From the IMG/VR virus record IMGVR_UViG_3300045988_175628: a stretch of 64,000 nt of DNA. One strand, 5' to 3'. The notes below the pieces were generated by a model. That model made no database searches and was not told the DNA's origin. It saw only the letters and a program-made list of their open reading frames with translations. How positions within the stretch are numbered: position 1 is the stretch's first letter; each line of letters starts with the position of its first letter. This document shows, piece by piece, positions 14,825 through 35,540 of the stretch. The position numbers and the translations under genes were made by a program. The stretch comes from a virus.

Positions 14825-15361
14825 TTAATTATCGCAAAGTTCAACAATTTTGAATCTTAGTGCTTCACTAAATCGAATTAGTTCCATACGATCTTTTATT
14901 CTTTTCCCATACCATTTACCAGCTCCAGGATTATGTAGTTTAATTGCTCTATCAATATCTCTAGTTGGATTATAATGGTCATTCATCATTTCAAACATAG
15001 TTAAAGCTTTATCAAGATCCCAAGCATCCTCTAACACAAAATTAGTGTTATATAAGTTATTAACTTCATCAACATAAATTTTAGTAATTTGGAATGGGCC
15101 TATTGCATTTTTACTAGATTTTACTTTTGGATTTCTCTCACATTCTACTTCAACAAGTGCCATGATAAAAACTTGCCATTCTGTAAGAGAATCACGAGTT
15201 TCTGTGATTGTAGTAATTGGATTAGTTAGAACTACGGGATTTGGTTTAATTGGGCTCCCAAATATTGCAAATATTCCAATAATAGTTACACAACCTATAA
15301 AAATTCGTTTATAAATCATATTTTTAAGTTTTATAGCAGAGGTGGCAGGACTCGAACCCAC
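14825..15361 (-). CDS. putative lysozyme-like/lytic transglycosylase-domain protein with N-terminal TM segment
   Basis: TM helix then '…EVECERNP…GPFQI' reminiscent of SLT E…GxxQI motif. Confidence 0.35.
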   Translation of the reverse strand: MGSSPATSAIKLKNMIYKRIFIGCVTIIGIFAIFGSPIKPNPVVLTNPITTITETRDSLTEWQVFIMALVEVECERNPKVKSSKNAIGPFQITKIYVDEVNNLYNTNFVLEDAWDLDKALTMFEMMNDHYNPTRDIDRAIKLHNPGAGKWYGKRIKDRMELIRFSEALRFKIVELCDN

Positions 15362-15420
15362 ACCTGGAGTTTTGGAGGCTCCCGTTTACGGTTTTGCTTA
15401 CCACTACAGTTTTCACTGCC
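15341..15420 (-). ncRNA. atypical tRNA-like element (T-arm GGGTTCGAGTCC, CCA-anticodon-like loop CTCCAAA, no canonical acceptor pairing)
   Basis: Strong T-arm and a Trp-like anticodon stem-loop, but I could not find a 5' acceptor strand complementary to the 3' end. Confidence 0.3.
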
Positions 15421-15479
15421 TTTCGTTTGTGGTCTAGAGTACGTCTTCACCATATCTTTCGACTTAGGTGCACGATTAT

Positions 15480-15890
15480 CTACTCGTTCGCGGCTAGAAT
15501 TCCTTCTATTCCGACGTCGTTACCATCAGCATTATCTGTTAAGGATTCAACGTTATCATCGTGTCCACTATTAGTGTTTCCACTAATAGGCTCCATTTGT
15601 TTAAAATTATTTTTGTAATCTTGACAACTGTTTACGCCAATAGAACTTCTATACTGAGAAGAGAAATGCACAGGTAAAATATATAAGTCTTTAGTATCTA
15701 AGTCAACTCCAATAAAATAATCTATATCTTTTTCAGTATACAGTTTTACTTTATATTCTCCCATATTATGAGATATTTTTCTCACTGGAATTATTCTTCT
15801 ACCATTACTTTCTATTTGTATAGTTTTAATCTGCAGTTTAATATATTTATTATCTTTTTCTGCAATTAAATCTACTTTTCCATTCTCCAA
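15480..15890 (-). CDS. small PD-(D/E)xK-like nuclease candidate
   Basis: 'VDLIAEKDNKYIKLQIKT' resembles D…(D/E)xK nuclease core; paralog of 30759..31157; sits immediately upstream of tRNA-like element 15341..15420. Confidence 0.3.
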   Translation of the reverse strand: MENGKVDLIAEKDNKYIKLQIKTIQIESNGRRIIPVRKISHNMGEYKVKLYTEKDIDYFIGVDLDTKDLYILPVHFSSQYRSSIGVNSCQDYKNNFKQMEPISGNTNSGHDDNVESLTDNADGNDVGIEGILAANE

Positions 15891-16044
15891 AACAGGTTTA
15901 AATAGATTATACCCGTTTTCAATAAATTTCTGTTCTACTAGCAGGCTACCTAAGTAACCTTTTTCAATTGTTTTTCAATCACTCATAATTTTATTCAGTT
16001 AAAGACCGCTGTGCTACCATTACACTACACCCCTATTCTTTCTA

Positions 16045-16497
16045 TTATTTCTTTCGACTCCTATGAATTAGATCTTCTTTACCTTTAATAGGTGCCTTTT
16101 CTACAAATAGTTCTCCAGAAGGCCCTAAAATAGTAGCATAAACATTAAATCCATTTATAGTAAGATATGTGTAAATTACATCTAGTTCAGAACCAATATA
16201 AGATTTTATAAGACGAGATAGTCCATAATCACCTTCTATAGAAAGTACTCGGGAACCTTTTGCATGCCAAAGACATTTTTCTTGTTCATTCCAAGTAGGA
16301 GGCATTGTAGAAACACAAGCCTTGCCTCCAGTTATATATAAATAAAGTTCTTCACTCATAGGAAGTTTAGTTATAGTATAATTGTCATAAGTATAAGGAG
16401 AACTACATATACCTTCAGTACTAATAGTAAAACTAGGTATACTAGATATGTCAGTTATATTTCGACATGAAATCATTAATTCTCCAGGGAGTCCCAT
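16045..16497 (-). CDS. hypothetical protein
   Basis: 150-aa ORF. Confidence 0.4.
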   Translation of the reverse strand: MGLPGELMISCRNITDISSIPSFTISTEGICSSPYTYDNYTITKLPMSEELYLYITGGKACVSTMPPTWNEQEKCLWHAKGSRVLSIEGDYGLSRLIKSYIGSELDVIYTYLTINGFNVYATILGPSGELFVEKAPIKGKEDLIHRSRKK

Positions 16498-16602
16498 ATC
16501 GCCTTTGGGACCTGGATCACCTCCTCAATTTGATCCTACTGGAAATGTTGTTGTTGAATTAGAATTTGTATTATTCATTTTTTAACATATTTAAAATATT
16601 TG

Positions 16603-16690
16603 TACCTCTGACAGGACTCGAACCTGCACCCTACTATTACTTCAGACTACGGCCTAAACGTAGCGTGTCTACCAGTTCCACCACAGAGGC
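16603..16690 (-). tRNA. tRNA-Leu (anticodon TAG), type II
   Basis: Acceptor GCCTCTG/CAGAGGT, anticodon loop TTTAGGC, long variable arm, T-loop TTCGAGT. Confidence 0.75.
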
Positions 16691-16695
16691 CTCTT

Positions 16696-17196
16696 TTATA
16701 GTAATAAATGTAATTGATTTATATCAGTTACTACTGTAACCATTTCTTTCACATTATCTTGAATTAATGGGCAGTCTAGGAACCATTGCCAATGATTTCC
16801 AATTAAACAAATCAATGGTTTTTTCTTACGTCGTCTACATTCATCTAGTGTTAAGCATAATTCTGCTAAAGTGCCAATTCCTCCAACCTGAACAATAAAT
16901 ACATCACTTGAGGAAATTAACATTCTAAGTCTATGATAAATATCAGGAGCTACAGTGTATTTGGTTAAATATGGATTACCTTTAGTAAATCCAAATGTAG
17001 CACAAGTAAAACCTTCCACTTCAGCTCCAACAGCGCTAGCTCCTAACGAGACAGCTTTCATCAATCCTCCATAACCTCCGTTATAGACTTTGTAGCCACA
17101 TTCAGCAAGAATATTTCCTATATAGACAGAATCTGAATATTCTTTAGAAGCCTCATCTGTTCTTGCTGCTCCAAAAAAAGTTGCTATTTTACCCAT
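16696..17196 (-). CDS. LOG-family (TIGR00730) nucleotide-binding/phosphoribohydrolase protein
   Basis: 'GGYGGLM' and 'GGIGTLAEL' LOG signatures. Confidence 0.7.
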   Translation of the reverse strand: MGKIATFFGAARTDEASKEYSDSVYIGNILAECGYKVYNGGYGGLMKAVSLGASAVGAEVEGFTCATFGFTKGNPYLTKYTVAPDIYHRLRMLISSSDVFIVQVGGIGTLAELCLTLDECRRRKKKPLICLIGNHWQWFLDCPLIQDNVKEMVTVVTDINQLHLLL

Positions 17197-17391
17197 ATAC
17201 TTTCTCTAGTTGAAGTTCAACTACATCTTTAAAAACTTTATACTTATCATCAAGTAAGTTTACTGAAGCTGTACGTTTATCTTTATTAAATGTAAACATT
17301 GTTACATGTGAAAAGTTAAAAACATATGTATCTCCAGTTTCTAAAACTATCCTAATTACTAACGGTTTCATAATTTATACTTTCATTTTTG

Positions 17392-17476
17392 CGGAGAGCA
17401 GTGGAATCGAACCACATGCCAGAAAGGCACACATTGCTTAGCAGGCAAGCCCTATCACCATCAAGGATTACTCTCC
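17392..17476 (-). tRNA. tRNA-Ser (anticodon GCT), type II
   Basis: Acceptor GGAGAGT/GCTCTCC, anticodon loop CTGCTAA, long variable arm, discriminator G. Confidence 0.7.
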
Positions 17477-17482
17477 AAACCT

Positions 17483-17863
17483 TTAGACGTCCTTCAAAAA
17501 ATTAAATCTAAGGACAATGTAAATTATTCCTGTTATTACTATTGCTTCAGCAAGTAATCCAATAGAAATCATACTTCCTAGAGCTGCAATAACCCAAATG
17601 AGAATTGCTGTTGTTAAGTTAGCTATATTAGTGGATTTGTCCTTCCAAATGATTCCAGCACCAATAAAGCCAACTCCAGAAGCTATCTGGGCAGCTACTC
17701 TAGAAGGGTCTCCACCTATTCTTGTAGAGATATATGTAAATATAAAAGATCCTAACATTAGTAGAACAACGGAACGAATTCCAATTACCTTGTTAGTTTT
17801 TTGTCTTTCATATCCAAGAACTGCTCCACAAAAAATTAATATAGCTAAATTAAGAAAGAACAT
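17483..17863 (-). CDS. MgtC/SapB-family membrane protein
   Basis: 'LGYERQ' motif and multi-TM profile typical of MgtC. Confidence 0.65.
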   Translation of the reverse strand: MFFLNLAILIFCGAVLGYERQKTNKVIGIRSVVLLMLGSFIFTYISTRIGGDPSRVAAQIASGVGFIGAGIIWKDKSTNIANLTTAILIWVIAALGSMISIGLLAEAIVITGIIYIVLRFNFLKDV

Positions 17864-18208
17864 ACTAAATATAAACTAACTTGTTACATTTTGGACATGA
17901 ATAGATGCTTATAACATTTCCATTAGCATCCTTAGTTTCTCCTATATATCGTAAAGGAGATCCACATATATTACAGTAAAGCATTGTTAAAATTATTTAA
18001 ATATACTGTTAAAAACAACCCAAGCCCATACTTCCTCATAGGCTATGATTTTCTCACACATGCAAAAAGCATATCTGCCATAAGGATGAATAAAAATATG
18101 CTCCTGAGTCATGTTATTTCTAAAAGTATAACCTTTCTTTTTAAGGTATCTTAAAAGGAACCACCTAGAAAATTTGTTTGTATGTATATAAATATACTGT
18201 GTCATAAA

Positions 18209-18640
18209 TTAATTGACTTTAATTTTTCCATTCCATTTTGGCAAACTTTTTCCTTCTTGTACTGCTTTCCGCCAATCATGTTCATAATCAATAACTTTTT
18301 GAATATAATCTAGAAGTTCATGTCTCTTATAATTGCTCAATAATGTAATAATATTTTCCCTTCCAACAGGATTAGCAGACTGACTAGCAAACTCAGGAAG
18401 TTTTTTACCCTCATCAATACACCGATCCACAATATACTTAGCTATATCATATCCAGATTTCTCTTCCCCTAAATCATGATCTAGACAAATTGCATCAGGC
18501 CATTCTTTCTCAAGAAAATCAATCGCTTCTTGGTAAGATTGAGCCCATATTACTTTACAATTTCTACCAATTGGACTAAAATTCATCCAATCATCTTCCA
18601 TTGGATTCCTAGCGTCATCTACCCAAAGAAGTGTTTTCAT
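18209..18640 (-). CDS. receiver (CheY-like)-domain protein
   Basis: 'LLWVDDARN…DHDLG' acidic pocket pattern of receiver-like domains. Confidence 0.45.
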   Translation of the reverse strand: MKTLLWVDDARNPMEDDWMNFSPIGRNCKVIWAQSYQEAIDFLEKEWPDAICLDHDLGEEKSGYDIAKYIVDRCIDEGKKLPEFASQSANPVGRENIITLLSNYKRHELLDYIQKVIDYEHDWRKAVQEGKSLPKWNGKIKVN

Positions 18641-19923: not shown

Positions 19924-19939
19924 ATTATAATGTTATTAG

Positions 19940-20024
19940 TACGGAGGGTGGGACTCGAACCCACAATGGCTATTCAGCCGCCAGTTTAGAAGACTGGTCC
20001 ATTATCCATTCTGGTCACCTCCGC
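19940..20024 (-). tRNA. type-II tRNA with anticodon loop CTTCTAA (anticodon TCT); isotype uncertain
   Basis: Acceptor GCGGAGG/CCTCCGT, anticodon stem CCAGT/ACTGG, extra arm GGCTGAATAGCC, T-arm GTGGG-TTCGAGT-CCCAC; an Arg anticodon on a Ser/Leu-like long-arm body is unusual. Confidence 0.55.
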
Positions 20025-20212: not shown

Positions 20213-21274
20213 TTATTTGTAATAAGCATTTCTTTCAGAAGGAGACATATATTCCCATTCTACATTCTTAAACTCTTGAAGAGTTCTACATCCAGTATAA
20301 GACATAGCAGATCTTAATGCGGAATCAAATTGAGAAAGTAAAGACTCAAGAGTATATTCAACAGGAACCCAAATCTCGATTCCTTCTTCAGCCTTTTTAG
20401 TATCAGAAATGTCCTTTTGACCACGTTCACTTGCCATTCCGTAGTATAGTCTTTCTTTGGGGTACAGTCCAATAACTCGTTCTCTGTCTGCTTTAGTTAG
20501 AGACATAAAATATCTAAGCGTCTCAGGATTATCATCTAGTCCTTTTGTCCGAGTTTGCCCGCAAGCCTCCTCACATTGTGCAAACATTTTGCCCATCATT
20601 ACATAATCTGCACCCAAAGCTAAACATTTTATAGCTCTATCTATTGTAGAAATTCCTCCATCTGCAATGATTTTTGGAGCTTTTTTAGGTTTAGGAGAAT
20701 CTTTAATCATGGATTTACAATTAGATAGATGTCGTAACAACCATTCCATTGAAGCATGTATCCCAGTTTTTACTCCAGTAGTACACACACTACCAGTTCC
20801 AATTCCTACTCGAACATAATCTACTCCTGCATCATAGCATTCCCAATAAAGATCTGGATGTGCGATATTTCCTACCATTATAATAATAGTTCCCCATCTC
20901 TCCTTAGCCTTTTTGACTAATTCATAGATTTTTTTCATATGTCCATTAGCTAAATCAATAAGTACTAAAGGACACTCATCCGCTACTTCTCCTTCACAAA
21001 AGAAAGTCTCAAATTCTTTTAAACTAAATGCACACCATACATGATTACATGCATTAAGTCTAAATTGTAAATTATCAACACGTCGGGGAATAATAGGAAG
21101 AACATCGGCATCTGTAAAAAGTTGATAATTTGATTCATCAATTACAGATGTCATAGGAGCAACAAAGATAGGATAGGTTCCTAAATCTCCTAAAGGATCA
21201 CATTCACTACGACTTACAATATCAGTAGCTTTTGAACTAGGTAAAATACCTATTTCATCTAAACTATACATCAT
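20213..21274 (-). CDS. guaC: GMP reductase / IMPDH-family protein (GuaC-like)
   Basis: 'GIGTGSVCTTGVKTG', 'IIADGGI', about 350 aa without CBS insert. Confidence 0.7.
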   Translation of the reverse strand: MMYSLDEIGILPSSKATDIVSRSECDPLGDLGTYPIFVAPMTSVIDESNYQLFTDADVLPIIPRRVDNLQFRLNACNHVWCAFSLKEFETFFCEGEVADECPLVLIDLANGHMKKIYELVKKAKERWGTIIIMVGNIAHPDLYWECYDAGVDYVRVGIGTGSVCTTGVKTGIHASMEWLLRHLSNCKSMIKDSPKPKKAPKIIADGGISTIDRAIKCLALGADYVMMGKMFAQCEEACGQTRTKGLDDNPETLRYFMSLTKADRERVIGLYPKERLYYGMASERGQKDISDTKKAEEGIEIWVPVEYTLESLLSQFDSALRSAMSYTGCRTLQEFKNVEWEYMSPSERNAYYK

Positions 21275-21476
21275 CTTCTATTTCTTTTAAAATCTCGCAA
21301 ATTCAATATTCAGGATCGTTAATCAAATAATGATTCCCAAATTCATTTCTTAAGCACATTTCTTCATTCACTTTTGTGTCAGATAATGTTCTTAATGAAT
21401 TATACCTAAATCCTTCTCCTTCAGGAGCTTCAATTGATTGTATTCTATATAAGACAGTTTTCATACCTTTATTTTA

Positions 21477-21548
21477 GAGGTTCTAGAAGGATTCGAACCC
21501 TCGTTCTCAGATTCGTATTCTGAAGTTTTTCCAATTAAACTATAGAAC
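21477..21548 (-). tRNA. tRNA-Arg (anticodon ACG)
   Basis: Acceptor GGTTCTA/TAGAACC, anticodon stem TCAGA/TCTGA loop ATACGAA, T-loop TTCGAAT. Confidence 0.75.
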
Positions 21549-21918
21549 CAAAAGGTGGAATATTCCACCTTAGAATTATTCTGCTACCTTTTCACAGCCT
21601 ACTTCTGGAATTTCTGTAAAATACTCATTGTAAATTTTCTGAGCAATTTCCAGACAAATTTCGGCACTACGAAGATCATCACGCAGCTTAAACATTTGAC
21701 TTACCCACTCATCTGCTTTAAAGTCTGTGCCTACTACCAGTGATTCAGTAGATTTAATTGACAGATCCTCAAGATTCATAATCTTTGATTTAATCTGCCG
21801 AATTTCCTTTTCAATGAGATTAACTTGATCCTTTGCTGCTTCACGAGCATCAGCATTAATAATCTCTGCACGTTTCTTGAGTACTGCAGTACCAGTAGCA
21901 CTCAGAATTTCATTAAAT

Positions 21919-22722
21919 TTATTTATAAACTTTTTTTACTATTATATTATTTGGAAGTTCTTCTTTATCCCAATCCTTATAAGAATTAGAGATTGTTATT
22001 GTTTTATAAAGTTGAGCAAGCTTTATCAAAGGCTCTTTCTGAATCGCATGTACAACACACAAAGATATATCTTTAGCTCCTTTATCTTGCAGTGCCTTAT
22101 GAATTGCAAAGAAAGTTCCTCCTCCATCACATAAGTCATCAACAACAGTGATAGATTTACTTGAATCTATTTCTGAAGTAATTGTTACCTCCAATTTATC
22201 CTTTGAAACTCTATGTTTTTCAGCACAATATATTGACTCGAACATAAAATAATCCTCATAACGTTTCTGTGCTCCTTTGTCAGGAAATAAAACTGCACCA
22301 TGAATATTATTTGGAAGTACTTTTGCAGATTCTGTCAGATTGGGTAAAATTATTCCATCAGAAATTAATTTGCTAGAATGTGGCTCTATTACTGATGTAA
22401 TTTGCGCTTGTACAAAGGTAAGACATTTTCCAACAAGTTCCAAATCCAAGGCTTCATTGAAAGAAAATAATCTATCAGTTCGAGCTGCAAACAAATATGC
22501 TATTTGTAAATGAGAAATCTGGATACCTTGACGATGACAAATATCTGCTATTTGCATCAAAATCCAAATATCATTTAAATTAGACAGTCGAGTATAAATT
22601 GTCAAGGTTTTCTTCCTATCTAATTCAGTTTCAAGTACAAGATGAGATTGAGAGTCAGGATAGGTATCAATTCGATATTTTACTTCCGACTTCTCTGGGT
22701 ATATAAAATCAATTACTTGCAT
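21919..22722 (-). CDS. ribose-phosphate pyrophosphokinase (PRPP synthetase)-family protein; candidate ADPR-PP synthetase (Adps-like)
   Basis: PRTase motif 'ITVVDDLCDGGGTF'; Prs-like N-terminus. Confidence 0.65.
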   Translation of the reverse strand: MQVIDFIYPEKSEVKYRIDTYPDSQSHLVLETELDRKKTLTIYTRLSNLNDIWILMQIADICHRQGIQISHLQIAYLFAARTDRLFSFNEALDLELVGKCLTFVQAQITSVIEPHSSKLISDGIILPNLTESAKVLPNNIHGAVLFPDKGAQKRYEDYFMFESIYCAEKHRVSKDKLEVTITSEIDSSKSITVVDDLCDGGGTFFAIHKALQDKGAKDISLCVVHAIQKEPLIKLAQLYKTITISNSYKDWDKEELPNNIIVKKVYK

Positions 22723-23801
22723 ATAGAGCTGAAATTATGCTTGTAAGTTTTAACTGAATAACTACAAAGAGTTGCTAATGTATGCCCTTCACATATATCA
22801 CAACAAGTTTCTATCGCTCTTGTTGGATACCAACCCTTAAATTTGGATTGAACATGATTTATTCCATATAAGACAAGTTCTTCATTAAATTCATAAGTCC
22901 AAAATTCTCCCTGAAACAAATTATTTCTATTCGTTTCATACGGATTTTGAATTTCTTTGAATACAGAGTCTCCTACTGGACCTTTACCATGTCTCGTTAA
23001 ATAGGATCTATAAACAAAATTAATAGTTATTTGATCTTTAGTTATAAAAGAAGGTAAAATATCAGGAGATGGACAACATGTAATTGGTGTTGTATATTTA
23101 TGAGATAGACCCACATCAGGATCTAAAAGAACACCTTGAGAACCCTCAAAGATTATTGAAGTATTTGAAGACCTAAATCCATATGGTTCACCAAGAAGTA
23201 CATTAGAATAAAAGGTTTTACAATAAGTATCAACAAGAGAATCCAAGTTATCAAACACATGACGAAACCTATGATAAGTTTCATCAAATTGTATTTTTTC
23301 TTCTGCCCATTCTCTGATTAATTTAAGCTTCATTTTTACAACTTGAGGAAAAGATAAATCTTTTATATATAATGACATTCCTTCTCGTTCTCTACAAATT
23401 GTCTCCCATATACCCTTCCCAACAGTACCTCCTAGATTCCTTTCAGAATTAAGCATTACATCAAATGGAGTAGTTATTTGTACATAAGGATCAAAATATT
23501 GAAGAGGAACATCGCACCCAAGTGTCCCTAATTGTCTATATTCTTGTAACCATTGTAAAGGATCCATAACACACTTAGACATCCAGTATGTAGGAGCATC
23601 TACAAATGTACCAGAGCCAAAACAAGAAAATATATGAGTTTTCCCTGATTCAGTAGTAACAGTATGACCCGCTTGTTGCCCTCCTGAGAATCTAACAACT
23701 ATAGGATTTAAATGATTTCTTTTGGCATCACAGCAGAGAGCATGGGTAACTTGACCTTTTCCTTCGTCACCAAATGTACAACCTACTACAATATTATGCA
23801 T
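22713..23801 (-). CDS. adenylosuccinate synthetase-family protein (short PurA homolog; PurZ-like length)
   Basis: 'GDEGKGQ' P-loop, 'GGQQAGHTV', 'TVGKGIW'; only 362 aa versus about 430 for canonical PurA. Confidence 0.7.
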   Translation of the reverse strand: MHNIVVGCTFGDEGKGQVTHALCCDAKRNHLNPIVVRFSGGQQAGHTVTTESGKTHIFSCFGSGTFVDAPTYWMSKCVMDPLQWLQEYRQLGTLGCDVPLQYFDPYVQITTPFDVMLNSERNLGGTVGKGIWETICREREGMSLYIKDLSFPQVVKMKLKLIREWAEEKIQFDETYHRFRHVFDNLDSLVDTYCKTFYSNVLLGEPYGFRSSNTSIIFEGSQGVLLDPDVGLSHKYTTPITCCPSPDILPSFITKDQITINFVYRSYLTRHGKGPVGDSVFKEIQNPYETNRNNLFQGEFWTYEFNEELVLYGINHVQSKFKGWYPTRAIETCCDICEGHTLATLCSYSVKTYKHNFSSICK

Positions 23802-24685
23802 TACCGTTTCCCTAAAGTAAATAAATTAGATTTTGTTGGAATAGTTTCTTCAGAAACTTTTGTAGATATTTCCTCTGTTGCAAAACCTTTCAAAGTTTTA
23901 CCCATAGCATCACAAATAGATTCTACAACTTCTTCAGGTTTACATACAATAAGATTATCTCGAAGAAATTCTTTCATTTGCTTTTTTACTACCTCATCAT
24001 AATATCCACCACCGTGGTGAACATGAATATGAAATACATGATATTTCTCGCAAGCTAATTCGTAAGCTTCTTGCCAAGTATAATCACGTTCATATTTTAC
24101 ACCAGTCAAATTAGTTAAAGTTTCCTTACTAATCCTAGACAAAGTAGGTTCATCTCCAACAGTAAAAAGAAATCCTTTTTGGTTTCTCTTTTCATAACTA
24201 TCAATAGAAGTATGATTTCCAGCAATAATCCAAGGCAATAAATAAGATTCTCCATTATTACCACCTCCACGTCCTTCTAAGTAAATTCTAGAAAGACATT
24301 GATTAATCGCGATAGTTGAGGATTCGAATTGCCCTACTTGACATGGGCAAGAATCACATTCATGATCTCCCACTCCCATAAAAAGAATCTGAGGATGTTT
24401 AATCCCAATAGAATCAATAATGGAATCCATTAATTTAGGGAGATAATCTCGAATCATTTTATCAGGAACTGATCCCATTGAACCAGTTTCATCTAAAGCA
24501 ATAAAAACTGGAAAAGATTCAGGATGTTCCTCAGAATCTCTTGATTCTCTGATATGTGTTTTACTTTTCGTTAAATCCATTTCTTCATGCAGAGATCGCT
24601 GATGAAAAATTTCTTCTCTGGATTTTGTAGAGTAAGCAGCAGTTGTTGCTCTATATGTATTTGTACTCCATGATCCACTTCCCAT
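23801..24685 (-). CDS. von Willebrand factor A (vWA) domain protein
   Basis: MIDAS 'DETGSMGS'. Confidence 0.55.
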   Translation of the reverse strand: MGSGSWSTNTYRATTAAYSTKSREEIFHQRSLHEEMDLTKSKTHIRESRDSEEHPESFPVFIALDETGSMGSVPDKMIRDYLPKLMDSIIDSIGIKHPQILFMGVGDHECDSCPCQVGQFESSTIAINQCLSRIYLEGRGGGNNGESYLLPWIIAGNHTSIDSYEKRNQKGFLFTVGDEPTLSRISKETLTNLTGVKYERDYTWQEAYELACEKYHVFHIHVHHGGGYYDEVVKKQMKEFLRDNLIVCKPEEVVESICDAMGKTLKGFATEEISTKVSEETIPTKSNLFTLGKR

Positions 24686-24689
24686 ATTA

Positions 24690-25481
24690 TTAAAATATTT
24701 TAATTACATGATCTTTATGATAAGCATTTTCATGTAATTTTAAGATTTGTGATTCAATTTCAGTAAATGGACTCTTAAGATGTCCTGTACGATCTAATCG
24801 CTCCATTTTTTCAATGAGAACATCAAGCTCTTGATAAGTAAATCCAAAATTTTCTTCATCAGATCTGCCTGTTAATCCGTCTGCAGGAACTTTATGAACT
24901 AAATTATAAGGCAACTCCATGAAGTCTCCTAGTTTTACAACTTCTGTACAAGTCAAACGTGCAATTGGATTAATATCACAAGCCATATCTCCCCATTTTG
25001 TACACCATCCAATAAATGCTTCGGATTTGTTACCTGTTCCAGCTACTCTGTAACCCAAAGACTGAGCAATCGCATATAGAATTGTCATGCGAATGCGAGG
25101 TGCAATATTAGTTAAAGCTTTATCAGAAATTATAATTGAGGAACCATCTGAAACAAGATTAGGAATTCCTACATCTATGGATTTTTCTAAAGTGGTTCTT
25201 TCGATAGAACTCAACAGTGAGGTAAAAGGATGTGAAATATTTATTAGTATATGTCTGATATCTAAATATTTGCATACTTCTAAACTATCACTGATATCCT
25301 TTTGCTCTCCATTAGGCATTAAAACACCTAATACATTTTCTTTTCCTATAGCATCCACTAGAAGCTTAGCTACTATAGTAGAATCCTTCCCTCCACTAAT
25401 GCCCAGGACATAACCACGAGCATTAGTGTGAGTTTGGTAATTCTTAAGGAAGGATATTATTTTTTTGTATTCTTTTTCCAT
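24690..25481 (-). CDS. nadE: NH3-dependent NAD+ synthetase
   Basis: PP-loop 'GISGGKDST', length and C-terminal region match NadE. Confidence 0.8.
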   Translation of the reverse strand: MEKEYKKIISFLKNYQTHTNARGYVLGISGGKDSTIVAKLLVDAIGKENVLGVLMPNGEQKDISDSLEVCKYLDIRHILINISHPFTSLLSSIERTTLEKSIDVGIPNLVSDGSSIIISDKALTNIAPRIRMTILYAIAQSLGYRVAGTGNKSEAFIGWCTKWGDMACDINPIARLTCTEVVKLGDFMELPYNLVHKVPADGLTGRSDEENFGFTYQELDVLIEKMERLDRTGHLKSPFTEIESQILKLHENAYHKDHVIKIF

Positions 25482-26965
25482 TAAAATCTTCCGTTCCAGA
25501 GAATTTTACGAATCTCAGTAAGAGAGGTTTCTTCAATCATTTTTCCATCAACAAAAATAGGACGAAGAAGATTAAAGGGTTCCTCATGGGCCTCTTTCAG
25601 AGTCATGCCCTCATCACAGTCAAATTCGTTTGTTACATGATTATAGAAAACAGCACAACACCCTTTGTGTGACTTTTTCATCCCTGAATCTGTTTTAGGA
25701 TCTTTGTAAACCATAATAGGTTTAATTACCCCATCAATAGTTTGTTCAACATAACTACATTTAATTGCAACATTAAATGTATCACGAGAAAACATATCAA
25801 CTCGTCCTGATTCATCCATATAAGAAAGCATAGAAAATCCTCCTGCTCCCAAAGCTACATTTTCCACAGAAAATCCTTGCTCATCAAGAATTTGATAAAT
25901 TTGCTTTGTTCGTAATTGAGTAATACCGTCTCCATATAGAGCTCTAACATGAGAGTCAAGAACTTTATATCCTTTAGAATTAATTGTGCCTCCAAATGTA
26001 TCCCAAAGGCTAAAAACAGTCTCAGTTACAATTTCTACAGGATCTCCTGAATCCCCTCTAACATATAAAGTTCCATTTCTACTTAAAATTTCTTGTTTAA
26101 GACTTGGAAGAATAGTATCAACAACATTCCAATAATCATAAGAATCACTTACCATAGAAAAGGATCCATTAGGATATACTTCGGTAAGAAGACGACGAAT
26201 CATGCTAATTTCATTTCCGTCAATAGCAGCAGAGCTACACATCACAGAATGCTCTGTTGATGCCATTCCTCCTCCTACTATAGACATAGGAGTATTGTAA
26301 TATTTAGAGGCATACATGATGCCAGGAATAGTAGCAGTCTTATTGAAAGAAAGTAAAAATCCACAAGACGCCTTTATTGCTCCATGAAGTCCTACTAAAC
26401 TTCTAAATCCGAATTCAGAAATAGCAGAACGACCAGAAATATCAGAAGTTTTAGTATAGTAATCATTTACTATATTGCGATATTTAGTCACAGCAGTTGC
26501 TACACACATTGGGTACCAAAGTTCAGAAAGCATTAAAGTTTCAATAAAATTAGTACACCATGCAAATTCAGGCAAAGTATTAGAAATTTCAATACATGGT
26601 ACATTCATTCCTATTTTATATCCTTCAGGTAATGCCCAAATTTCAACAGGAAGATACCCAAGTTGATGAAGCTTTTTTATTTTATCCGAATTAACCCTAT
26701 TAGCTCCCATAGTAGAAGATATTACAAATTCGTATTCTGCAATAACTTCATCTAAAGAGCGATTAAAGAAGGTTTCGTTCATATATTCAATCAGATATTC
26801 CTTAATAAATGCTTGAATGCCAAAAACTACAACCTTATTAAATTCAGGGATTCTAGTTTTACGAGGAACATAATATGAAACTACTTTAGTAATGCTGGGA
26901 TCATATTGTTCTGCATGACACTGTTTATAAAAATCCGTAAGCAGAATTCCGCAAGGTTTAAACAT
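25481..26965 (-). CDS. nicotinamide phosphoribosyltransferase-family protein (NAMPT/NadV or Namat-like)
   Basis: 494-aa NAPRTase/NAMPT-fold protein next to Prs-like and NadE genes. Confidence 0.75.
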   Translation of the reverse strand: MFKPCGILLTDFYKQCHAEQYDPSITKVVSYYVPRKTRIPEFNKVVVFGIQAFIKEYLIEYMNETFFNRSLDEVIAEYEFVISSTMGANRVNSDKIKKLHQLGYLPVEIWALPEGYKIGMNVPCIEISNTLPEFAWCTNFIETLMLSELWYPMCVATAVTKYRNIVNDYYTKTSDISGRSAISEFGFRSLVGLHGAIKASCGFLLSFNKTATIPGIMYASKYYNTPMSIVGGGMASTEHSVMCSSAAIDGNEISMIRRLLTEVYPNGSFSMVSDSYDYWNVVDTILPSLKQEILSRNGTLYVRGDSGDPVEIVTETVFSLWDTFGGTINSKGYKVLDSHVRALYGDGITQLRTKQIYQILDEQGFSVENVALGAGGFSMLSYMDESGRVDMFSRDTFNVAIKCSYVEQTIDGVIKPIMVYKDPKTDSGMKKSHKGCCAVFYNHVTNEFDCDEGMTLKEAHEEPFNLLRPIFVDGKMIEETSLTEIRKILWNGRF

Positions 26966-26966
26966 A

Positions 26967-27548
26967 CTAGTCTCGATTAATTATATGCATTTGTAATCCT
27001 TTCATAACATCTAATGCTTTATCATGTAGTTCTTTATCATTAGATCGACAAAGACTTGCGTCAACTATAATATCTGCATTAGGAAAAATTGTTTGAAAAC
27101 TAACTGCACAAGAAAGTACACAAATATTTGTAACAACTCCTACAATAGTAATTTCATCGATTATATTATTTGTAATACAATCAAGATTAGGACCTCCTGC
27201 GAATGACGCATCTTCTAAAGCTTCTGGGCTAAATCCAAAAGAATTAATTTTATCAAGAATATAGCAAGAATTTTGAAAAGGTTTAAATTCTTTACAAATA
27301 TTCCATCCCTCTGAAGATTCTATACAGTGAATAGGAAGATATATTCCTTCTCTAGTGTTTTTATAAAGATACTTCGTTGAATACGTCGCATCATAATGAG
27401 TGTCTCTTGTAAATAATACAAGATCATCTTCAGTAAGATATTCATCAATTTTTGATTTAATACCAGGAATAATTTCTTCAGCACCAGGAACTCTTAAGAC
27501 ACCCCGTACAAAATCTTCCTGCATATCAATTACTGCAAGTAATCGCAT
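26967..27548 (-). CDS. isochorismatase-family hydrolase, probable nicotinamidase (PncA-like)
   Basis: 'MRLLAVIDMQEDF' N-terminal Asp motif of the cysteine-hydrolase family; NAD-salvage context. Confidence 0.65.
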   Translation of the reverse strand: MRLLAVIDMQEDFVRGVLRVPGAEEIIPGIKSKIDEYLTEDDLVLFTRDTHYDATYSTKYLYKNTREGIYLPIHCIESSEGWNICKEFKPFQNSCYILDKINSFGFSPEALEDASFAGGPNLDCITNNIIDEITIVGVVTNICVLSCAVSFQTIFPNADIIVDASLCRSNDKELHDKALDVMKGLQMHIINRD

Positions 27549-27832
27549 ATATCTTTTTCATTTAAAATTAAATAACTATTCTTGTCAAAAAGAATCACAC
27601 TAGAATCAGTTTGACCAATTATATTTATAATTACTTCTTTTTTTAGATCCCAAATAAAAATTTGCAGAAGTCTACTTGTTTTCTTCATAATCCAAGCTTT
27701 ATATACTCTTTTGTTAGTAATTATAAATACATCATCAAATTGTTCTAAATTTGCCACTTTTTTAAAAGATTCTTCAGTATTTTCAGTTACTTTATTAAAT
27801 CTTTCAAAAACTTTTAAGAGCCATCTCTTCAT
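27530..27832 (-). CDS. hypothetical protein
   Basis: 100-aa ORF. Confidence 0.35.
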   Translation of the reverse strand: MKRWLLKVFERFNKVTENTEESFKKVANLEQFDDVFIITNKRVYKAWIMKKTSRLLQIFIWDLKKEVIINIIGQTDSSVILFDKNSYLILNEKDICDYLQ

Positions 27833-28012
27833 CGCCTAAATTTTTTCTTTACTGGAGGCTTCCCTCCTTCTTGTTCTTTAAATTTCTTAGGCCGTTTCGG
27901 CATTCTAGGTTTATCTTCTTCACAATAATCAGGAATTTGATAATCTCTAAGGTACTTACCCATAATTAGATTATTAATAAAAGGCTCCAGTAAAATACTG
28001 GAGCCTATCAGT

Positions 28013-29740
28013 TTACATCTTAATGAAAGATAGAATCTCTTGATTCATAGCTTCATCAAACAGATCACGTGTAGTTTGTACTTTTCCATTTAAGAATGAC
28101 ACAATCTGTGCAGAATACCCAGACATATAATAAACATTCTTAACATCCCCATATGTTTGGAAAGGTGTTCGGTCGAGCTGATAATAATGATTTCTTAGAT
28201 TCCAGAGACAAACAACAAAATTGTTAATATACTCCTCGGAAAATCCTCCTCTCCTTAGTGTAGAATGAACCCTCTCTACGGAGGTCTTATTTAAGCATGA
28301 AGGATTAAACTCACAATCACTAATACATAGAATTCCTTTAGGAAATTCCTCTTCTGGAATACCCTGCGATTTTAGTCTAACGAAGAGATCAATAACGCTC
28401 TCAAAGTTAGTACTGCCGTAATATCCAGAATGGTCATTATACCACTTCTCTAAAGGTGTATTTCCTCTCCATTCATGAAGCTGGGCGTTTGAATTAAACT
28501 CAATCCACGCATTTTGGAATCTTCCTTTCAAGAAATATGAGAAGTATAAAGCTATTGCTTTACTTATATTATAACAAGACATAGATACTCCCGTTGCATC
28601 GGAACTCATAGAACCAGAAGTATCACGAACTACAATTAAATCTGTAGTATTTCCCTCATTTTGACACTTGTTAACAAGTGTCATAAATTGTTTATTAATA
28701 GTGTCTTGAATATGCTTCTCTATGTTATGCAAAGCTTTATTACAGATAGGTTGAAAAAGTTCATGTACAAATCCTGTATATTTTACTTCTTTTACCTCGG
28801 GACTACCAACCCACTCTTGATACTTTTCTTTAAGATTATGATTCTCTAAAAATTTTGAATGAACCAAAATATTTAAAGCACGACCATGAATCTTATCAAA
28901 GTCAATTTCTGCATATTTTTGCTTTGAAATAAGTTGTTGCCAACTGTGTGCAGTTCCAGATGCTTTCATTCTGGCATAACAACGATACACCTGATACTTC
29001 TCAGCTTCTGATCTTTCTTTTGATGTTCCATAAAGTTTGGAACACAACCACTTAGCAATTATACAATTTGCTTCTGCCTCTATTGTAGTACATTTTGAAC
29101 GAGCTTTAATTTGAGGGAGATACTTACGAACTAAATTAGTCTGAGAATCTGAGTTAAGTCCAGATAGAATTAAATCTCCAAAACGTTCCCAATCTAAAAC
29201 TCGATTTTCCCAACCATTATAAATTAAATCGTAGCGTAGCATGACAAATAAGTCCTTCCAAGAACCTACTAAGGGAATTAGCCAAGCATTTTTCCAGAAC
29301 ACTTCCTTATCTTTAGTATGTAGCCAGATAAGTCGCATAATTCCTTCATGACGTAATTCAGAACCTTTTTGTGCTTCCTTAGTGCCATGATCTTTATCAT
29401 TAATCTTACGACAAATCATTCGCAAGAAAAAGATAAATTTAACAGCATCTTCCTTATTTATAGCCCATAAAATCTCACAATCTTTAGCGATTTCTGAGAA
29501 GGGACGAATTTCTTTGTACTTAGAAGTACTTCCAAACTGATCAACAAATGGATCCCCAGTTGAATTATAAGCTTTTGCACCATTTCCTGTAAGAATCTCT
29601 GCTGAGATTTTTAATCCTGCTTGAACAAAAGTAGATTTAGATGTTGATTTACTGTCATTAGCAGTAAATAGGGTTTTCTTTTTTGCTTCGAACATCTTAT
29701 TAAAGTTTTTAAAAATAAAGCGGATATTGAACAATGTCAA
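28013..29740 (-). CDS. large vWA-domain protein (DUF2828-like architecture)
   Basis: C-terminal MIDAS 'VVRDTSGSMSS'; 575 aa. Confidence 0.5.
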   Translation of the reverse strand: MTLFNIRFIFKNFNKMFEAKKKTLFTANDSKSTSKSTFVQAGLKISAEILTGNGAKAYNSTGDPFVDQFGSTSKYKEIRPFSEIAKDCEILWAINKEDAVKFIFFLRMICRKINDKDHGTKEAQKGSELRHEGIMRLIWLHTKDKEVFWKNAWLIPLVGSWKDLFVMLRYDLIYNGWENRVLDWERFGDLILSGLNSDSQTNLVRKYLPQIKARSKCTTIEAEANCIIAKWLCSKLYGTSKERSEAEKYQVYRCYARMKASGTAHSWQQLISKQKYAEIDFDKIHGRALNILVHSKFLENHNLKEKYQEWVGSPEVKEVKYTGFVHELFQPICNKALHNIEKHIQDTINKQFMTLVNKCQNEGNTTDLIVVRDTSGSMSSDATGVSMSCYNISKAIALYFSYFLKGRFQNAWIEFNSNAQLHEWRGNTPLEKWYNDHSGYYGSTNFESVIDLFVRLKSQGIPEEEFPKGILCISDCEFNPSCLNKTSVERVHSTLRRGGFSEEYINNFVVCLWNLRNHYYQLDRTPFQTYGDVKNVYYMSGYSAQIVSFLNGKVQTTRDLFDEAMNQEILSFIKM

Positions 29741-29754
29741 TATCCGCTAATTGT

Positions 29755-30366
29755 TTACAATGAACCTCTGTAAAAAGTAATTGTCTTTCCTAATAAATTT
29801 TCTCCCCAGTCAGATATATTTTGAAGAGCATGATTTTCATCATAACCTATTCCCCAAATTCTGTCAAATGGAGAAGCCTCAACAAAAAATTTATTGTCTA
29901 GTATAGGATCTTTGAGCTTATCCATCAAATCCTTGTTTTGACTAAATTTTTCTTCTAAGGCCATATACATTTTCGATATTTTAACCTCGTCCCAAGATTT
30001 GCTATCAAAATTTTTAACTTGCCTTCCTAGTTTTTTAGCTTCTTTTGGAGTAACCGCTGACAAAATTTTCTCCGCAACTTCTAAATCACCAAAATATAAG
30101 GCTTTCAAGTACATGAAAAGCTGCTCAGATGATTTGAATACTTTGGAATCGAATATTATCCTACAGGGATAGAAATTACTTAACCAACCATCCCAAAAGA
30201 ATACAAAATTATTTGTAATTTTCATATAATTACTATTTATAAAATAAGATTGTGTGTTGTTACACCAAATGCTCAAAGGGCCTTTATTAGCATTGGAACA
30301 GAAGTTTATATACCTTGCGACCTTCTTCTCTCTTTTCGTTTTCCTACTCATCAAGGGAATTATCAC
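29755..30366 (-). CDS. NADAR (YbiA/DUF1768) domain protein
   Basis: 'FYPCRIIFD…FKSSEQLFMYLKALYFGD…AKKLGRQV…EASPFDRIWGIG' fits the NADAR family profile. Confidence 0.8.
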   Translation of the reverse strand: MIIPLMSRKTKREKKVARYINFCSNANKGPLSIWCNNTQSYFINSNYMKITNNFVFFWDGWLSNFYPCRIIFDSKVFKSSEQLFMYLKALYFGDLEVAEKILSAVTPKEAKKLGRQVKNFDSKSWDEVKISKMYMALEEKFSQNKDLMDKLKDPILDNKFFVEASPFDRIWGIGYDENHALQNISDWGENLLGKTITFYRGSL

Positions 30367-30661
30367 GTAATCCCGAATCCTTAATTGCAGGTTCCTCCCG
30401 TACTATTGCAACTTACTAATAAATGTATTACATCCCTGCCATATAGATCAAGCCTTATAGAACCCTCGATATTTCAATCTATGATAAGACTTTTTCAAAT
30501 TTTCAGTTTCATACTCCCTGTGGTATAATCTCTGAACTTAGTATAGTTAATTACAGAGTTTCTTGTCCACGCTATAATAGCTTGTTATAGTTTAACTTCC
30601 ACTCGCAACTCCTTAGAGGATGCATACCATCAATGCCACCTTCAACCTTATTTTAATTAGT

Positions 30662-30757
30662 CCCGCCGTAAGGATTCGAACCTCACTACCCCAAAGTCCA
30701 TTACACCAATTTGTTAACGGGGATTTGATTTACAGTCAAACGGTGTTACGTCGGGAT
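30662..30757 (-). ncRNA. atypical tRNA-like element (T-arm TGAGG-TTCGAAT-CCTTA plus 3' acceptor CGGCGGG; anticodon-like TTTGA-CTGTAAA-TCAAA; no regular cloverleaf)
   Basis: Possible acceptor CCCGACG/CGGCGGG with one mismatch but about 94 nt and no foldable D-arm; could be an intron-containing or degenerate tRNA. Confidence 0.3.
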
Positions 30758-30758
30758 T

Positions 30759-31157
30759 TTATAACTCTACTTTATATTTATCATATTTACCACATAAGGA
30801 AATTGATGTTCTAATTCCTTCAAGTTCTTTAACTGGAATTGAATAAAATTCTTTGAAAGAAGTTACAACAAATAGAAAATCACTAGAGTTATTATTGAAA
30901 GTCTTAGCTCAATAATTCTTTCGATTTCCTCCACAAGTTCTCAATCCTACTTGGAAATTTCCAGTCCTTTTATCTACCTGCGTGGTAGTTTTAACTTGAA
31001 TCTTCAATATATTTTCCCCATTATCTACGAGTAAATCGTAGTCCTGAGAATCTGTCATAGGAATAGATACTATTCACCCTAATTTTGAATAAAATGCGAT
31101 AGCATATGCCATCCCAACATTTCCTTGCAGTTTAGAATTTTTTAAATGTGAAAACAT
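30759..31157 (-). CDS. small PD-(D/E)xK-like nuclease candidate (contains 2 TGA)
   Basis: Hand translation MFSHLKNSKLQGNVGMAYAIAFYSKLGW…QDYDLLVDNGENILKIQVKTTT…; paralog of 15480..15890; abuts tRNA-like element 30662..30757. Confidence 0.35.
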
Positions 31158-35510: not shown

Positions 35511-35540
35511 CCTATTCATTGTAAAACTGTAAAGAATTTG

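Follow-up and report, generated by a model that had tools for sequence, protein, structure and literature searches.

Two putative homing endonuclease genes of a large phage and their unusual tRNA partners: an intron-split tRNA(UCA) and a rearranged tRNA-Tyr-like RNA

In a 64,000-nt stretch of viral DNA (IMG/VR record IMGVR_UViG_3300045988_175628, hereafter the window), two small nuclease genes, gene 1 and gene 2, are each associated with a tRNA-like RNA of unusual build. Gene 1 lies within an intron that splits the gene of a tRNA with a UCA anticodon, tRNA(UCA), and gene 2 adjoins a tRNA-Tyr(GUA)-like RNA that we call element 2. Taken as a whole, the explanation that we consider likely is that both genes are selfish homing endonucleases, that the intron of gene 1 divides a suppressor tRNA, and that element 2 is a phage tRNA-Tyr whose D stem is formed by a pseudoknot. 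An initial annotation of the window had described the two gene-RNA pairs as a repeated nuclease-plus-RNA module of a kind not yet described. Its view that both RNA elements are atypical stands, and the real novelty of the region lies in them. The module itself does not hold: when the two RNAs were checked for homology, one proved to be of Trp type with a UCA anticodon and the other of Tyr type with a GUA anticodon, the two being unrelated, and gene 1 is intronic whereas gene 2 is free-standing. Moreover, the intron-borne I-Ssp6803I and the SegB endonuclease of phages T4 and T6 (PMC2330249, PMC13096335) are precedents for nuclease genes of this kind.

Results

Both proteins belong to the I-Ssp6803I family of PD-(D/E)xK nucleases

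Both nuclease open reading frames (ORFs) are on the minus strand and, as initially annotated, encode PD-(D/E)xK-fold proteins with a common block, which reads VDLIAE...KLQIKT in gene 1 and YDLLVD...KIQVKT in gene 2. The two proteins were aligned by BLASTP with 26% identity over 96 amino acids (E = 9e-6), and both score well above the cutoff (26.1) of PF11645 (PDDEXK_5), gene 1 with 55.2 bits (E = 1e-14) and gene 2 with 70.4 bits (E = 2e-19). They also match PDB entry 2OST, which is I-Ssp6803I (E = 0.005 for gene 1 and E = 5e-12 for gene 2). Identity to 2OST is low, and the VDL...LQIKT and YDL...IQVKT blocks match its YDL...VQVKS column for column at the D...QxK positions, the catalytic assignment of which rests on the literature. 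I-Ssp6803I is a PD-(D/E)xK homing endonuclease with close homologues that are generally cyanobacterial (PMC3384342). A check for additional copies found no PF11645 gene in the window beyond these two. Genes 1 and 2 therefore encode, as judged from these matches, homologous PD-(D/E)xK nucleases of the I-Ssp6803I family, which would be expected to cut DNA at specific sites. Among the roles initially offered for them, the option of a homing endonuclease plus its target site is in essence correct, by membership of this family.

Gene 1 lies in an intron that splits a tRNA(UCA) gene

With introns allowed (option -i), ARAGORN called a tRNA(UCA) at c[15336,16034] with a 605-nt intron, and this split tRNA was missed both by default ARAGORN and by the Rfam gathering scan of the window. 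The 5' exon (16002-16034, minus strand; sequence to U34, AGGGGTGTAGTGTAATGGTAGCACAGCGGTCTT) contains the acceptor 5' strand, the D arm, the 5' strand of the anticodon stem, and the anticodon loop through U34. The intron (15397-16001, minus strand) falls between U34 and C35, and the 60-nt 3' exon (15337-15396, minus strand) provides the CAAA of the anticodon loop, the 3' strand of the anticodon stem, an extra arm, the T arm, the acceptor 3' strand, and G73; the limits of both come from ARAGORN with introns and from the relatives. The spliced tRNA has 94 nt and folds as a cloverleaf.

The split tRNA(UCA) was called by ARAGORN in 18 of 20 related IMG/VR loci (designated by L numbers), with introns of 527-707 nt. 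It was uncalled in L018, for which a copy from the same contig (L175) was read by eye, as were the exons of L174, L175, and L189. In every related copy the intron is placed after U34 and ends in G, and the two sides of the acceptor stem and of the anticodon stem, separated by the intron, covary in these relatives, with the anticodon stem variants GCGGT/ACCGT, CTGGT/ACCAG, and CGGGT/ACCTG. G73 is present in all copies, and position 1 forms an A1-U72 pair in most, including the window, and a G1.U72 pair in L001-L003. We take the acceptor and anticodon stems to be close to those of E. coli tRNA-Trp. By its sequence, tRNA(UCA) is a Trp-type opal suppressor of the phage, which would be charged with Trp and would decode UGA.

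The segment 15341-15420 had initially been annotated as a free-standing RNA; it corresponds to the last ~24 nt of the intron together with the 3' exon of the split tRNA. We considered it as a stand-alone tRNA-Trp(CCA), which obtains 17.9 bits with the Rfam tRNA model, and rejected this candidate because its would-be acceptor 5' strand (the intron end, GTGGTAAG) is constant while the 3' strand varies among relatives, and because the upstream exon pairs perfectly with the acceptor 3' strand instead. In L174, L181, L188, and L192, a divergent tRNA(UCA) with the non-standard T loop AUCGUCA hosts an ORF-less intron. ARAGORN does not call the tRNA of these four loci even when introns are allowed, so that more split suppressors may escape intron-aware tools.

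The intron ORF is a mobile module with an early TGA codon

Gene 1 occupies loop L1 of the intron (15480-15986, minus strand) and consists of 168 codons followed by TAG, with a TGA at codon 4 (15975-15977). The ORF initially annotated at 15480..15890 is thus real, but it starts at the ATG at 15986, and the shorter version had stopped at the in-frame TGA. The last ~37 codons of gene 1 are translated ribozyme core (P2 to P7). In L015-L020, this intron, inserted at the same position, holds an HNH ORF that is fused in frame to the same tail of 37 residues (EPISGNTNSGHDDNVESLTDNADGNDVGIEGILAANE). The PD-(D/E)xK ORFs of L007/L008, L011, and L014 are broken, being truncated, frameshifted, or deleted, and the introns of L174, L175, and L189 are ORF-less, with an L1 of only 6-24 nt. 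These ORF-less copies with a short L1 indicate that the gene 1 ORF is an insertion in L1. The intron gene is a separate mobile module that passes through the invasion, replacement, decay, and loss cycle of homing endonucleases. A TGA within the first five codons is kept in all intact intron ORFs, whichever of the two nuclease types they encode. Because of this conserved early TGA, gene 1 would need the product of its own host gene, and it would be translatable only once the spliced suppressor tRNA exists.

The intron has the structure of a group I ribozyme core

A manual model places the ribozyme core at 15397-15594 (minus strand, as are all positions of the model). The guide GAGCC lies within 15583-15594 and is followed by P2 (15568-15589, GAAA loop), P3 (15558-15563 with 15471-15476), P4 (15548-15552 with 15515-15519), P5 (15523-15544), P6 (15491-15513), P7 (15481-15485 with 15437-15441), P8 (15448-15470), which contains the CCUAAG/UAUGG 11-nt tetraloop-receptor motif, P9 (15400-15433, GAAA loop), and the terminal G (15397). 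The helix order, P3-P4-P5-P4'-P6-P7-P3'-P8-P7'-P9 with a P3/P7 pseudoknot, is diagnostic. The guide pairs with exon GG(U)CUU and forms a U34.G pair at the 5' splice site; the P1 pairs U34.G, U-A, C-G, and G-C with the GAGC of the guide are present in 13 of 13 distinct sequences. Over these 13 sequences, 99.3% of cells are paired in the core model, compared with 28-54% in slid controls, and 19 pairs show double changes, compared with 8.2 +/- 1.8 in shuffled alignments (0 of 500 shuffles reached 19). Compensatory changes were detected in P2, P3 (2 pairs), P6 (4), P7 (1), P8 (4), and P9 (3, in both helices). On the structure of this model the intron is filed as group I, and it would be expected to splice.

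Two assignments were discarded while the model was built. AAGATATGGT, at first read as the J8/7-P7 motif, is actually the UAUGG half of the 11-nt tetraloop receptor in P8, and the exon-complementary AGACC after P7 was ruled out as the guide by its wrong position and by the lack of a G.U pair. The GAGCC just upstream of P2 was identified as the guide because the ORF-less copies show it. This guide, together with a bulged P1, presumably resembles that of the Anabaena tRNA-Leu intron.

tRNA(UCA) has an extra arm with a Trp-anticodon-like loop

The variable region of tRNA(UCA) contains an extra hairpin (15366-15383, minus strand) with a GGAG/CUCC stem and a 7-nt loop, CUCCAAA. In most copies this hairpin lies between the anticodon arm and the T arm. 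In the window it brings the variable region to ~26 nt, in place of the 4-5 nt variable loop of the class I architecture; the extra arm is absent, leaving the class I form, only in L012/L013 and L174. Five unrelated stems occur (GGAG/CUCC, GGGG/CUCC, CUGG/CCAG, UACGU/ACGUA, and GGCAC/GUGCC), and around all five the loop (C/G)UCCAAA is almost invariant and resembles the anticodon loop of tRNA-Trp(CCA). The Rfam tRNA model aligns the extra hairpin at the place of the anticodon arm. The distance of this hairpin to the T arm is that expected of a class I anticodon arm, and the UCA arm has the distance to the D arm expected of an anticodon arm. From the comparison of these copies, selection on the extra-arm loop seems clear. 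The extra arm could be an identity aid for tryptophanyl-tRNA synthetase, a decoy, or a relic of the event in which a tRNA-Trp(CCA) gene acquired an intron-bearing UCA arm.

TGA is read as Trp in a subset of the phage genes

The window has a G+C content of 33.7% and at least 24 tRNA genes, and its minus strand carries most of the window genes and about two dozen tRNA genes. A megablast search with 20 kb against 50,697 deposited phage records gave no match; the relatives of the window are IMG/VR contigs of 88-178 kb. The window probably derives from a large, TGA-recoded gut phage, for which a crAss-like placement is suggested because its profile fits the TGA-recoded, intron-rich, and tRNA-rich crAss-like phages described previously (PMC7886860, PMC12386605).

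In-frame TGA codons are confined to a subset of genes, namely those for a helicase (nine), a DnaB-like protein, and a LicD-like protein, and all endonuclease genes, and most large genes of the window lack them. A homolog in L163 that is 49% identical to gene 2 has TGG at both gene 2 TGA codons. One of the gene 2 TGA codons is aligned with a W of I-Ssp6803I, a helicase TGA with a W of XPB, and a LicD-like TGA with a W of FKRP. These alignments indicate that TGA encodes Trp in the window phage. The long variable region of tRNA(UCA) led us to consider Leu, Ser, or Tyr instead; these were ruled out by the codons, which match TGG or W, and by the acceptor and discriminator, which are of Trp type. 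No other UGA-reading tRNA was found in the window by ARAGORN, with default settings or with introns, or by Rfam. In previous work, a detectable suppressor tRNA was reported in 35% of TGA-recoded genomes by Borges et al. (10.1101/2021.08.26.457843), according to whom the intron endonucleases of recoded phages favour TGA over TGG, and missing suppressors were also remarked upon in PMC7886860 and PMC12386605. The SUP-TCA tRNA of the Lera phage is unsplit and was detected by tRNAscan-SE (PMC12386605). The window also encodes an 81-nt amber-suppressor tRNA(CUA) (35540-35620, minus strand; labelled "Pyl" by ARAGORN), which stands alongside the opal suppressor, a combination also reported for phage Lera (PMC12386605); the stop codon of gene 1 is TAG.

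Gene 2 is free-standing and its family frequents tRNA genes

Gene 2 (30759-31157, minus strand), for which the coordinates and the two in-frame TGA codons had been annotated correctly, encodes 132 amino acids, ends in TAA, and is a free-standing PF11645 gene. A terminator-like hairpin precedes it, and its stop codon is 3 nt from element 2. The same arrangement of gene 2 and element 2 is found in L021 and L022, the ORF being intact in the window and in L021 and showing a 1-nt alignment gap in L022. L023 has a 59%-identical gene at the gene 2 position, and L024 keeps element 2 but only the last ~85-110 nt of gene 2. A second group I intron, around gene 2, was considered and ruled out, because upstream of the gene there is only the terminator hairpin and no 5' exon, and because in L024 the RNA is intact without the gene. 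Two low-threshold ARAGORN calls near gene 2, a tRNA-Pro with a 249-nt intron and a tRNA-Gly on the other strand, are artefacts. A window-specific spacer of ~400 nt (30226-30660, minus strand) separates element 2 from the point where the next gene probably truly begins (MKITNNFVFFW...); it is absent from L021, L022, and L024. In this spacer there was no Rfam hit and no notable ORF, its fold z-score was +0.8, and no copy was found in any fetched locus.

In 4 lineages, the Tyr-like RNA has a PDDEXK_5 gene next to it, at an offset that differs among them. Homologs of gene 2 are also present in cultured phages, where they are annotated "hypothetical protein". The homolog of Vibrio phage Chester overlaps the start of a tRNA-Tyr within a tRNA array, that of River4 abuts a tRNA-Pro, that of Bacillus phage BCP78 lies 13 nt before a tRNA-Ser, and that of Mycobacterium phage Kahlid is located between a tRNA-Gly and a tRNA-Lys. 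These four homologs, from unrelated cultured phages, each lie within a tRNA array and directly upstream of a tRNA; the UPEC06 homolog has no annotated tRNA nearby. Adjacency of nuclease and tRNA is a habit of the gene family and not a fixed module. As for the adjacency reported initially, the intronic and the 3-nt placements are specific, and both recur in relatives, whereas proximity to a tRNA alone is unsurprising in a window with so many tRNA genes. The tRNA-Tyr annotation of Chester (72 nt; L303 1495-1975 region) looks mis-bounded, and the sequence reads as a class II tRNA-Tyr of ~88 nt that starts inside the end of the nuclease ORF.

Element 2 is a tRNA-Tyr-like RNA with a relocated D-stem segment

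In the mapped structural model, element 2 has 95 nt (30661-30755, minus strand); it is a real tRNA-like RNA, as initially annotated, and only the bounds then given (30662-30757) needed correction. Comparison with L023 and 33 IMG/VR loci revealed five helices: the acceptor, a Tyr-type anticodon arm, the T arm, and two further helices, H4 and H2. Its 5' part reads CCCGACG UA ACACC G UUUGA-CUGUAAA-UCAAA U CCCC GUUAACAAAUU GGUGU, and its 3' part, after GGUGU, AAUGGACUUU GGGG UAG UGAGG-UUCGAAU-CCUUA CGGCGGG A. On the minus strand, the acceptor (30749-30755 with 30662-30668) is followed by U8-A (30747-30748), by H2a, the equivalent of the D-stem 3' strand (30742-30746), by the anticodon arm with loop CUGUAAA (30724-30740), and by H4a (30719-30722). 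Then come an 11-nt linker (30708-30718), H2b, which is the equivalent of the D-stem 5' strand (30703-30707), a D-loop-like AAUGG (from 30702 downward), H4b (30689-30692), the T arm (30669-30685), and A73 (30661). H4 (CCCC/GGGG) is at the position of a class II variable stem. H2 (ACACC/GGUGU) joins the segment after U8-A to five bases in the H4 loop, so that H2 and H4 interleave as a pseudoknot.

This pairing was evaluated on 25 sequences. In these, 98.6% of cells are paired, compared with 39-53% when the strands are slid, and the covariation score is 0.765, compared with 0.21 in shuffled alignments (0 of 500 shuffles reached it). Pairing is complete (100%) in both H2 and H4, each of which has two covarying positions, and six pair types occur at one H2 position. 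RNAalifold, which is blind to pseudoknots, independently recovered the helices of the acceptor, the anticodon arm, H4, and the T arm, without any D hairpin. The gap between the acceptor and anticodon stems is only 8 nt, and the canonical D hairpin is missing. Canonical parts that are kept include a 7-bp acceptor, A73 followed by C74, a GUUCRA-containing T arm, and an anticodon stem of 5 bp that closes the 7-nt loop C-U-G-U-A-R-A, the acceptor, anticodon, and T helices covarying over the 25 sequences; there are also conserved equivalents of U8, A14, G18G19, A21, G10-C25, and R26. Compared with a standard tRNA, H2b corresponds to the D-stem 5' strand (G10, Y11...), after which A14 and G18G19 follow, and H2a corresponds to the D-stem 3' strand, with U8 and an A matching A21 on its 5' side and R26 and the anticodon stem on its 3' side. 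This indicates, at the level of sequence, that the segment 10-20 has moved into the variable loop with all conserved core nucleotides present, and the rearranged chain may be equivalent to a standard tRNA in three dimensions. An invariant 11-nt linker, UUAACAAAU, precedes the relocated segment. Element 2 was called neither by default ARAGORN nor by Rfam, at the gathering threshold or at E <= 10.

Element 2 occurs almost only in phage DNA

The 33 IMG/VR loci yielded 27 distinct element 2 sequences, and in an anticodon-free search all members had GUA. A scan of 185,579 prokaryotic species genomes (one each) gave 2 true copies, both on contigs of 59-78 kb from metagenome-assembled genomes, and none in host chromosomes. 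By blastn, element 2 was found in 31 deposited phage records, nearly all of crAss-like Bacteroides phages, and was always unannotated. In crAss001 (NC_049977.1 ~4138-4233; L193 2480-2575) it occupies a 170-nt gap between tRNA-Lys and tRNA-Phe and shows another compensated H2, ACAUC/GAUGU. No tRNA-Tyr is present among the 25 annotated tRNAs of crAss001, and ARAGORN finds none. The tRNA arrays in which element 2 is found serve nearly every amino acid apart from Tyr. Element 2 is most simply read as the tRNA-Tyr of these phages, which would be charged and used in decoding, and crAss001 would then appear to lack tRNA-Tyr only because its gene is unrecognised. The variable arm of tRNA-Tyr is where the retron-Eco7 and Septu nucleases cut, and these nucleases are counteracted by tRNA-Tyr genes of phages (PMC11555353, PMC13096335). 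We hypothesize that the remodelled variable arm of element 2 may be an escape from variable-arm-cutting nucleases of the PtuAB, Septu, or retron-Eco7 type.

Other tRNA, ribozyme and metabolic genes in the window

A second split tRNA, tRNA-Leu(UAA), is encoded at 40864-41708 (minus strand), with a 760-nt group I intron after U34; ARAGORN mislabels it as Phe(GAA). Its intron core matches Rfam Intron_gpI (28 bits, E = 1e-5), and the intron holds an HNH ORF (41060-41605) with three in-frame TGA codons. A tRNA-Leu(UAG) with an intron of ~792 nt is present in L001, L004, L005, and L015, and the window copy of this tRNA (16602-16690) is intron-free. The tail of the HNH ORF, GLSTQKETSDVNVG, is common to the tRNA-Leu(UAG) intron of the relatives and the Leu(UAA) intron of the window. 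Because its presence varies and the ORF tail is shared, the tRNA-Leu intron is apparently mobile among Leu isoacceptors. At 33967-34701 (minus strand), flanked by tRNA genes, there is a further free-standing endonuclease gene, which is of HNH type and contains three in-frame TGA codons.

A tRNA-Arg(UCU) of 86 nt (19939-20024, minus strand) has a long variable arm, unusual for tRNA-Arg, and A73; its version in L003 is normal, with 75 nt. A full-length match to the Pistol ribozyme (55379-55449, minus strand; 72.8 bits, gathering score 34.5) adjoins tRNA genes at 54134-54208 and 54907-54981. Genes for nucleotide metabolism and for transporters are also present in the region. Auxiliary metabolic genes at 20213-26965 and 45925-49128 (minus strand) include those for an IMPDH/GMP-reductase-like protein, adenylosuccinate synthetase, and nicotinamide phosphoribosyltransferase, and an ABC-transporter set with an OmpA-domain substrate-binding protein.

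Discussion

Our analysis suggests how the two genes and their RNAs could function. The precursor of tRNA(UCA) would splice itself to the 94-nt tRNA, which would read TGA as Trp. The gene 1 endonuclease would cut the intron-less tRNA(UCA) gene in co-infecting relatives, and repair would copy the intron in, by analogy with I-Ssp6803I. Gene 2 would have inserted 3 nt upstream of the tRNA-Tyr, presumably cuts the corresponding site in genomes without gene 2, and would spread by co-conversion, as SegB does in the tRNA clusters of T-even phages. The window nucleases are additional members of a known group, homing endonucleases specialised on tRNA genes, and in this they are ordinary, unlike the tRNAs.

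Several points weigh against this explanation. The splicing of the intron, the cleavage sites and targets of both nucleases, and the processing, charging, and decoding of both RNAs are predictions. The core model of the intron was made by eye on the same sequences on which it was tested, which inflates the measure of cells paired, and P1, P4, and P5 are invariant, so that covariation gives them no support. Neither the core in the window nor the ORF-less copy of L175 was matched by the group I model RF00028 at E <= 10; as a positive control, the core of the window tRNA-Leu(UAA) intron obtained 28.2 bits (E = 1.2e-5) with this model, which is below its gathering score of 50. In the pattern with which element 2 sequences were collected, the anticodon loop and three of the five bases of H2b were set in advance, and a looser pattern was then used for the anticodon. 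Finally, more than 20 lineages of the Tyr-like RNA have no nearby PDDEXK_5 gene, and the adjacency of gene 2 to a tRNA could partly reflect the density of tRNA genes.

Among other explanations, element 2 might be a mimic of tRNA-Tyr, acting as a nuclease decoy or sponge, as a binder of tyrosyl-tRNA synthetase (TyrRS) or of a modification enzyme, or as another regulatory RNA. Its topology is non-canonical and no tRNA finder accepts it, and an oversupply of tRNA-Tyr blunts retron-Eco7 and Septu (PMC11555353, PMC13096335). We regard a mimic as unlikely, however, given that element 2 keeps all the sequence that a working tRNA-Tyr needs, including the nucleotides of tertiary contacts, and that it is found in tRNA arrays covering nearly all amino acids but Tyr.

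Gene 2, and perhaps gene 1, might instead be domesticated, amplifying or favouring the inheritance of the tRNA-Tyr locus or degrading competitor or host DNA. SegB offers a parallel, since it promotes inheritance and amplification of the tRNA-Tyr region and thereby counters Septu (PMC13096335, PMC2330249); homologs of gene 2 stand beside tRNA genes in four unrelated cultured-phage families, and the gene 2 ORF is intact in both the window and L021. Nevertheless, the presence of gene 2 varies among close relatives (L024), genes of its type are sporadic (4 of more than 25 lineages, at varying offsets), which is the usual signature of mobile selfish genes, and copies of gene 1 decay readily. Domestication thus seems quite improbable to us, and the selfish endonuclease remains our preferred reading of both genes.

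The tRNA(UCA) intron could also be dead and the split gene a pseudogene, TGA being decoded by another tRNA of the host or phage. The failure of the Rfam group I model to recognise the intron would fit this, as would the unsplit SUP-TCA tRNA of Lera (PMC12386605), and the window displays only 64 kb of a larger genome. Against a dead intron, compensatory changes keep the exons and the ribozyme helices across divergent copies, including those with decayed ORFs or no ORF, the splice-site nucleotides are invariant, and the split gene recurs in the related contigs examined; we therefore consider it very unlikely. That the nucleases are instead RNA-processing enzymes acting on the neighbouring RNAs (a tRNA intron or tRNA fragments), as the initial annotation allowed, is scarcely credible in spite of the tight coupling of both genes to tRNA-like RNAs and of the tRNA-splicing endonucleases in the PD-(D/E)xK superfamily (PMC3424549), because both proteins match specifically the I-Ssp6803I family, which cuts DNA, the intron has its own ribozyme core, of group I and supported by covariation, and persists with an HNH gene, a broken gene, or none, so that the protein is dispensable for the RNA, and element 2 occurs without such a gene in most phages.

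With the split, self-splicing suppressor and the phage tRNA-Tyr as the preferred reading, several consequences follow. An intron-split suppressor, hidden from default tools, would account for part of the "missing" suppressors in TGA-recoded phages. Recoding would then hang on RNA self-splicing, and the intron endonuclease would in turn hang on the suppressor. Element 2 is widespread in crAss-like and other large phages and, if functional, would be a natural experiment in tRNA architecture with relevance to RNase P, TyrRS, EF-Tu, and the ribosome; since a culturable phage carries it, it is testable now. Genes like that of I-Ssp6803I in the tRNA arrays of cultured phages carry the label "hypothetical protein". 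We see the chances as evenly balanced for the most far-reaching version of these conclusions, in which element 2 is a working, phage-specific tRNA-Tyr of undescribed chain topology, possibly of anti-nuclease origin, and the intron-split suppressor, with its Trp-like second arm, accounts for some of the missing ones. Neither phages nor pseudoknots come up in a review of non-canonical tRNAs from 2020. We found no published pseudoknotted or rearranged phage tRNA-Tyr and no published intron-split suppressor tRNA, in a literature coverage that is incomplete and so no proof of absence.

The closest known counterpart of the nucleases is I-Ssp6803I, which belongs to the same protein family as genes 1 and 2, with an aligned D...QxK. 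Its gene sits in a group I intron of the tRNA-fMet gene of a cyanobacterium (Synechocystis), and as with gene 1, it is the anticodon loop of a tRNA that this intron interrupts. In contrast to I-Ssp6803I, the host here is a phage and not a cyanobacterium, the tRNA interrupted by the intron of gene 1 is a Trp-type opal suppressor by prediction, the gene 1 ORF is located in L1 and reads into the ribozyme core, and it holds TGA, the codon that its host tRNA would decode; gene 2, in turn, is not intronic. SegB is a free-standing endonuclease of the T4/T6 tRNA cluster, from a family statistically associated with tRNA genes (PMC2330249, PMC13096335). It adjoins tRNA-Tyr in T6, and gene 2 and its homologs of cultured phages are similarly placed among tRNA genes; however, SegB is a GIY-YIG enzyme, whereas the fold of gene 2 is PD-(D/E)xK and its cleavage of DNA is predicted.

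The intron itself resembles the group I introns of bacterial tRNA genes (subgroup IC3: cyanobacterial and plastid tRNA-Leu(UAA), Azoarcus tRNA-Ile), which are likewise inserted after position 34, have a U.G pair at the 5' splice site and a terminal G, and share the compact core of ~200 nt, the GAAA tetraloops of P2 and P9, and the CCUAAG/UAUGG receptor in P8. It differs from them in that its host gene is a phage suppressor tRNA, in the ORF in L1, and in being unrecognised by RF00028, which does recognise the tRNA-Leu(UAA) intron of the window. Phages with suppressors of the recoded type (crAss-like, Agate, Jade, Lera) also combine a phage tRNA(UCA) with in-frame TGA for Trp in a subset of genes. 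Unlike those suppressors, the window tRNA(UCA) is split by a 605-nt intron, is missed by default ARAGORN and Rfam, and has a second, Trp-anticodon-like arm.

Element 2 shares with bacterial class II tRNA-Tyr the 7-bp acceptor, A73, the loop CUGUAAA, the variable-arm stem, and the T arm; it differs in having no D hairpin, nt 10-14 pairing inside the loop of the variable arm, with AAUGG following and the extra linker UUAACAAAU preceding. Allo-tRNAs, D-armless tRNAs, and the permuted or split tRNA genes of Cyanidioschyzon and Nanoarchaeum depart, like element 2, from the standard cloverleaf or gene order. However, D-armless mitochondrial tRNAs lose the D arm, whereas element 2 relocates it, and permuted and split tRNA genes give canonical mature tRNAs, whereas element 2 bears no sign of a post-transcriptional rearrangement. 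Its relocated segment is internal, which distinguishes it from a circular permutation.

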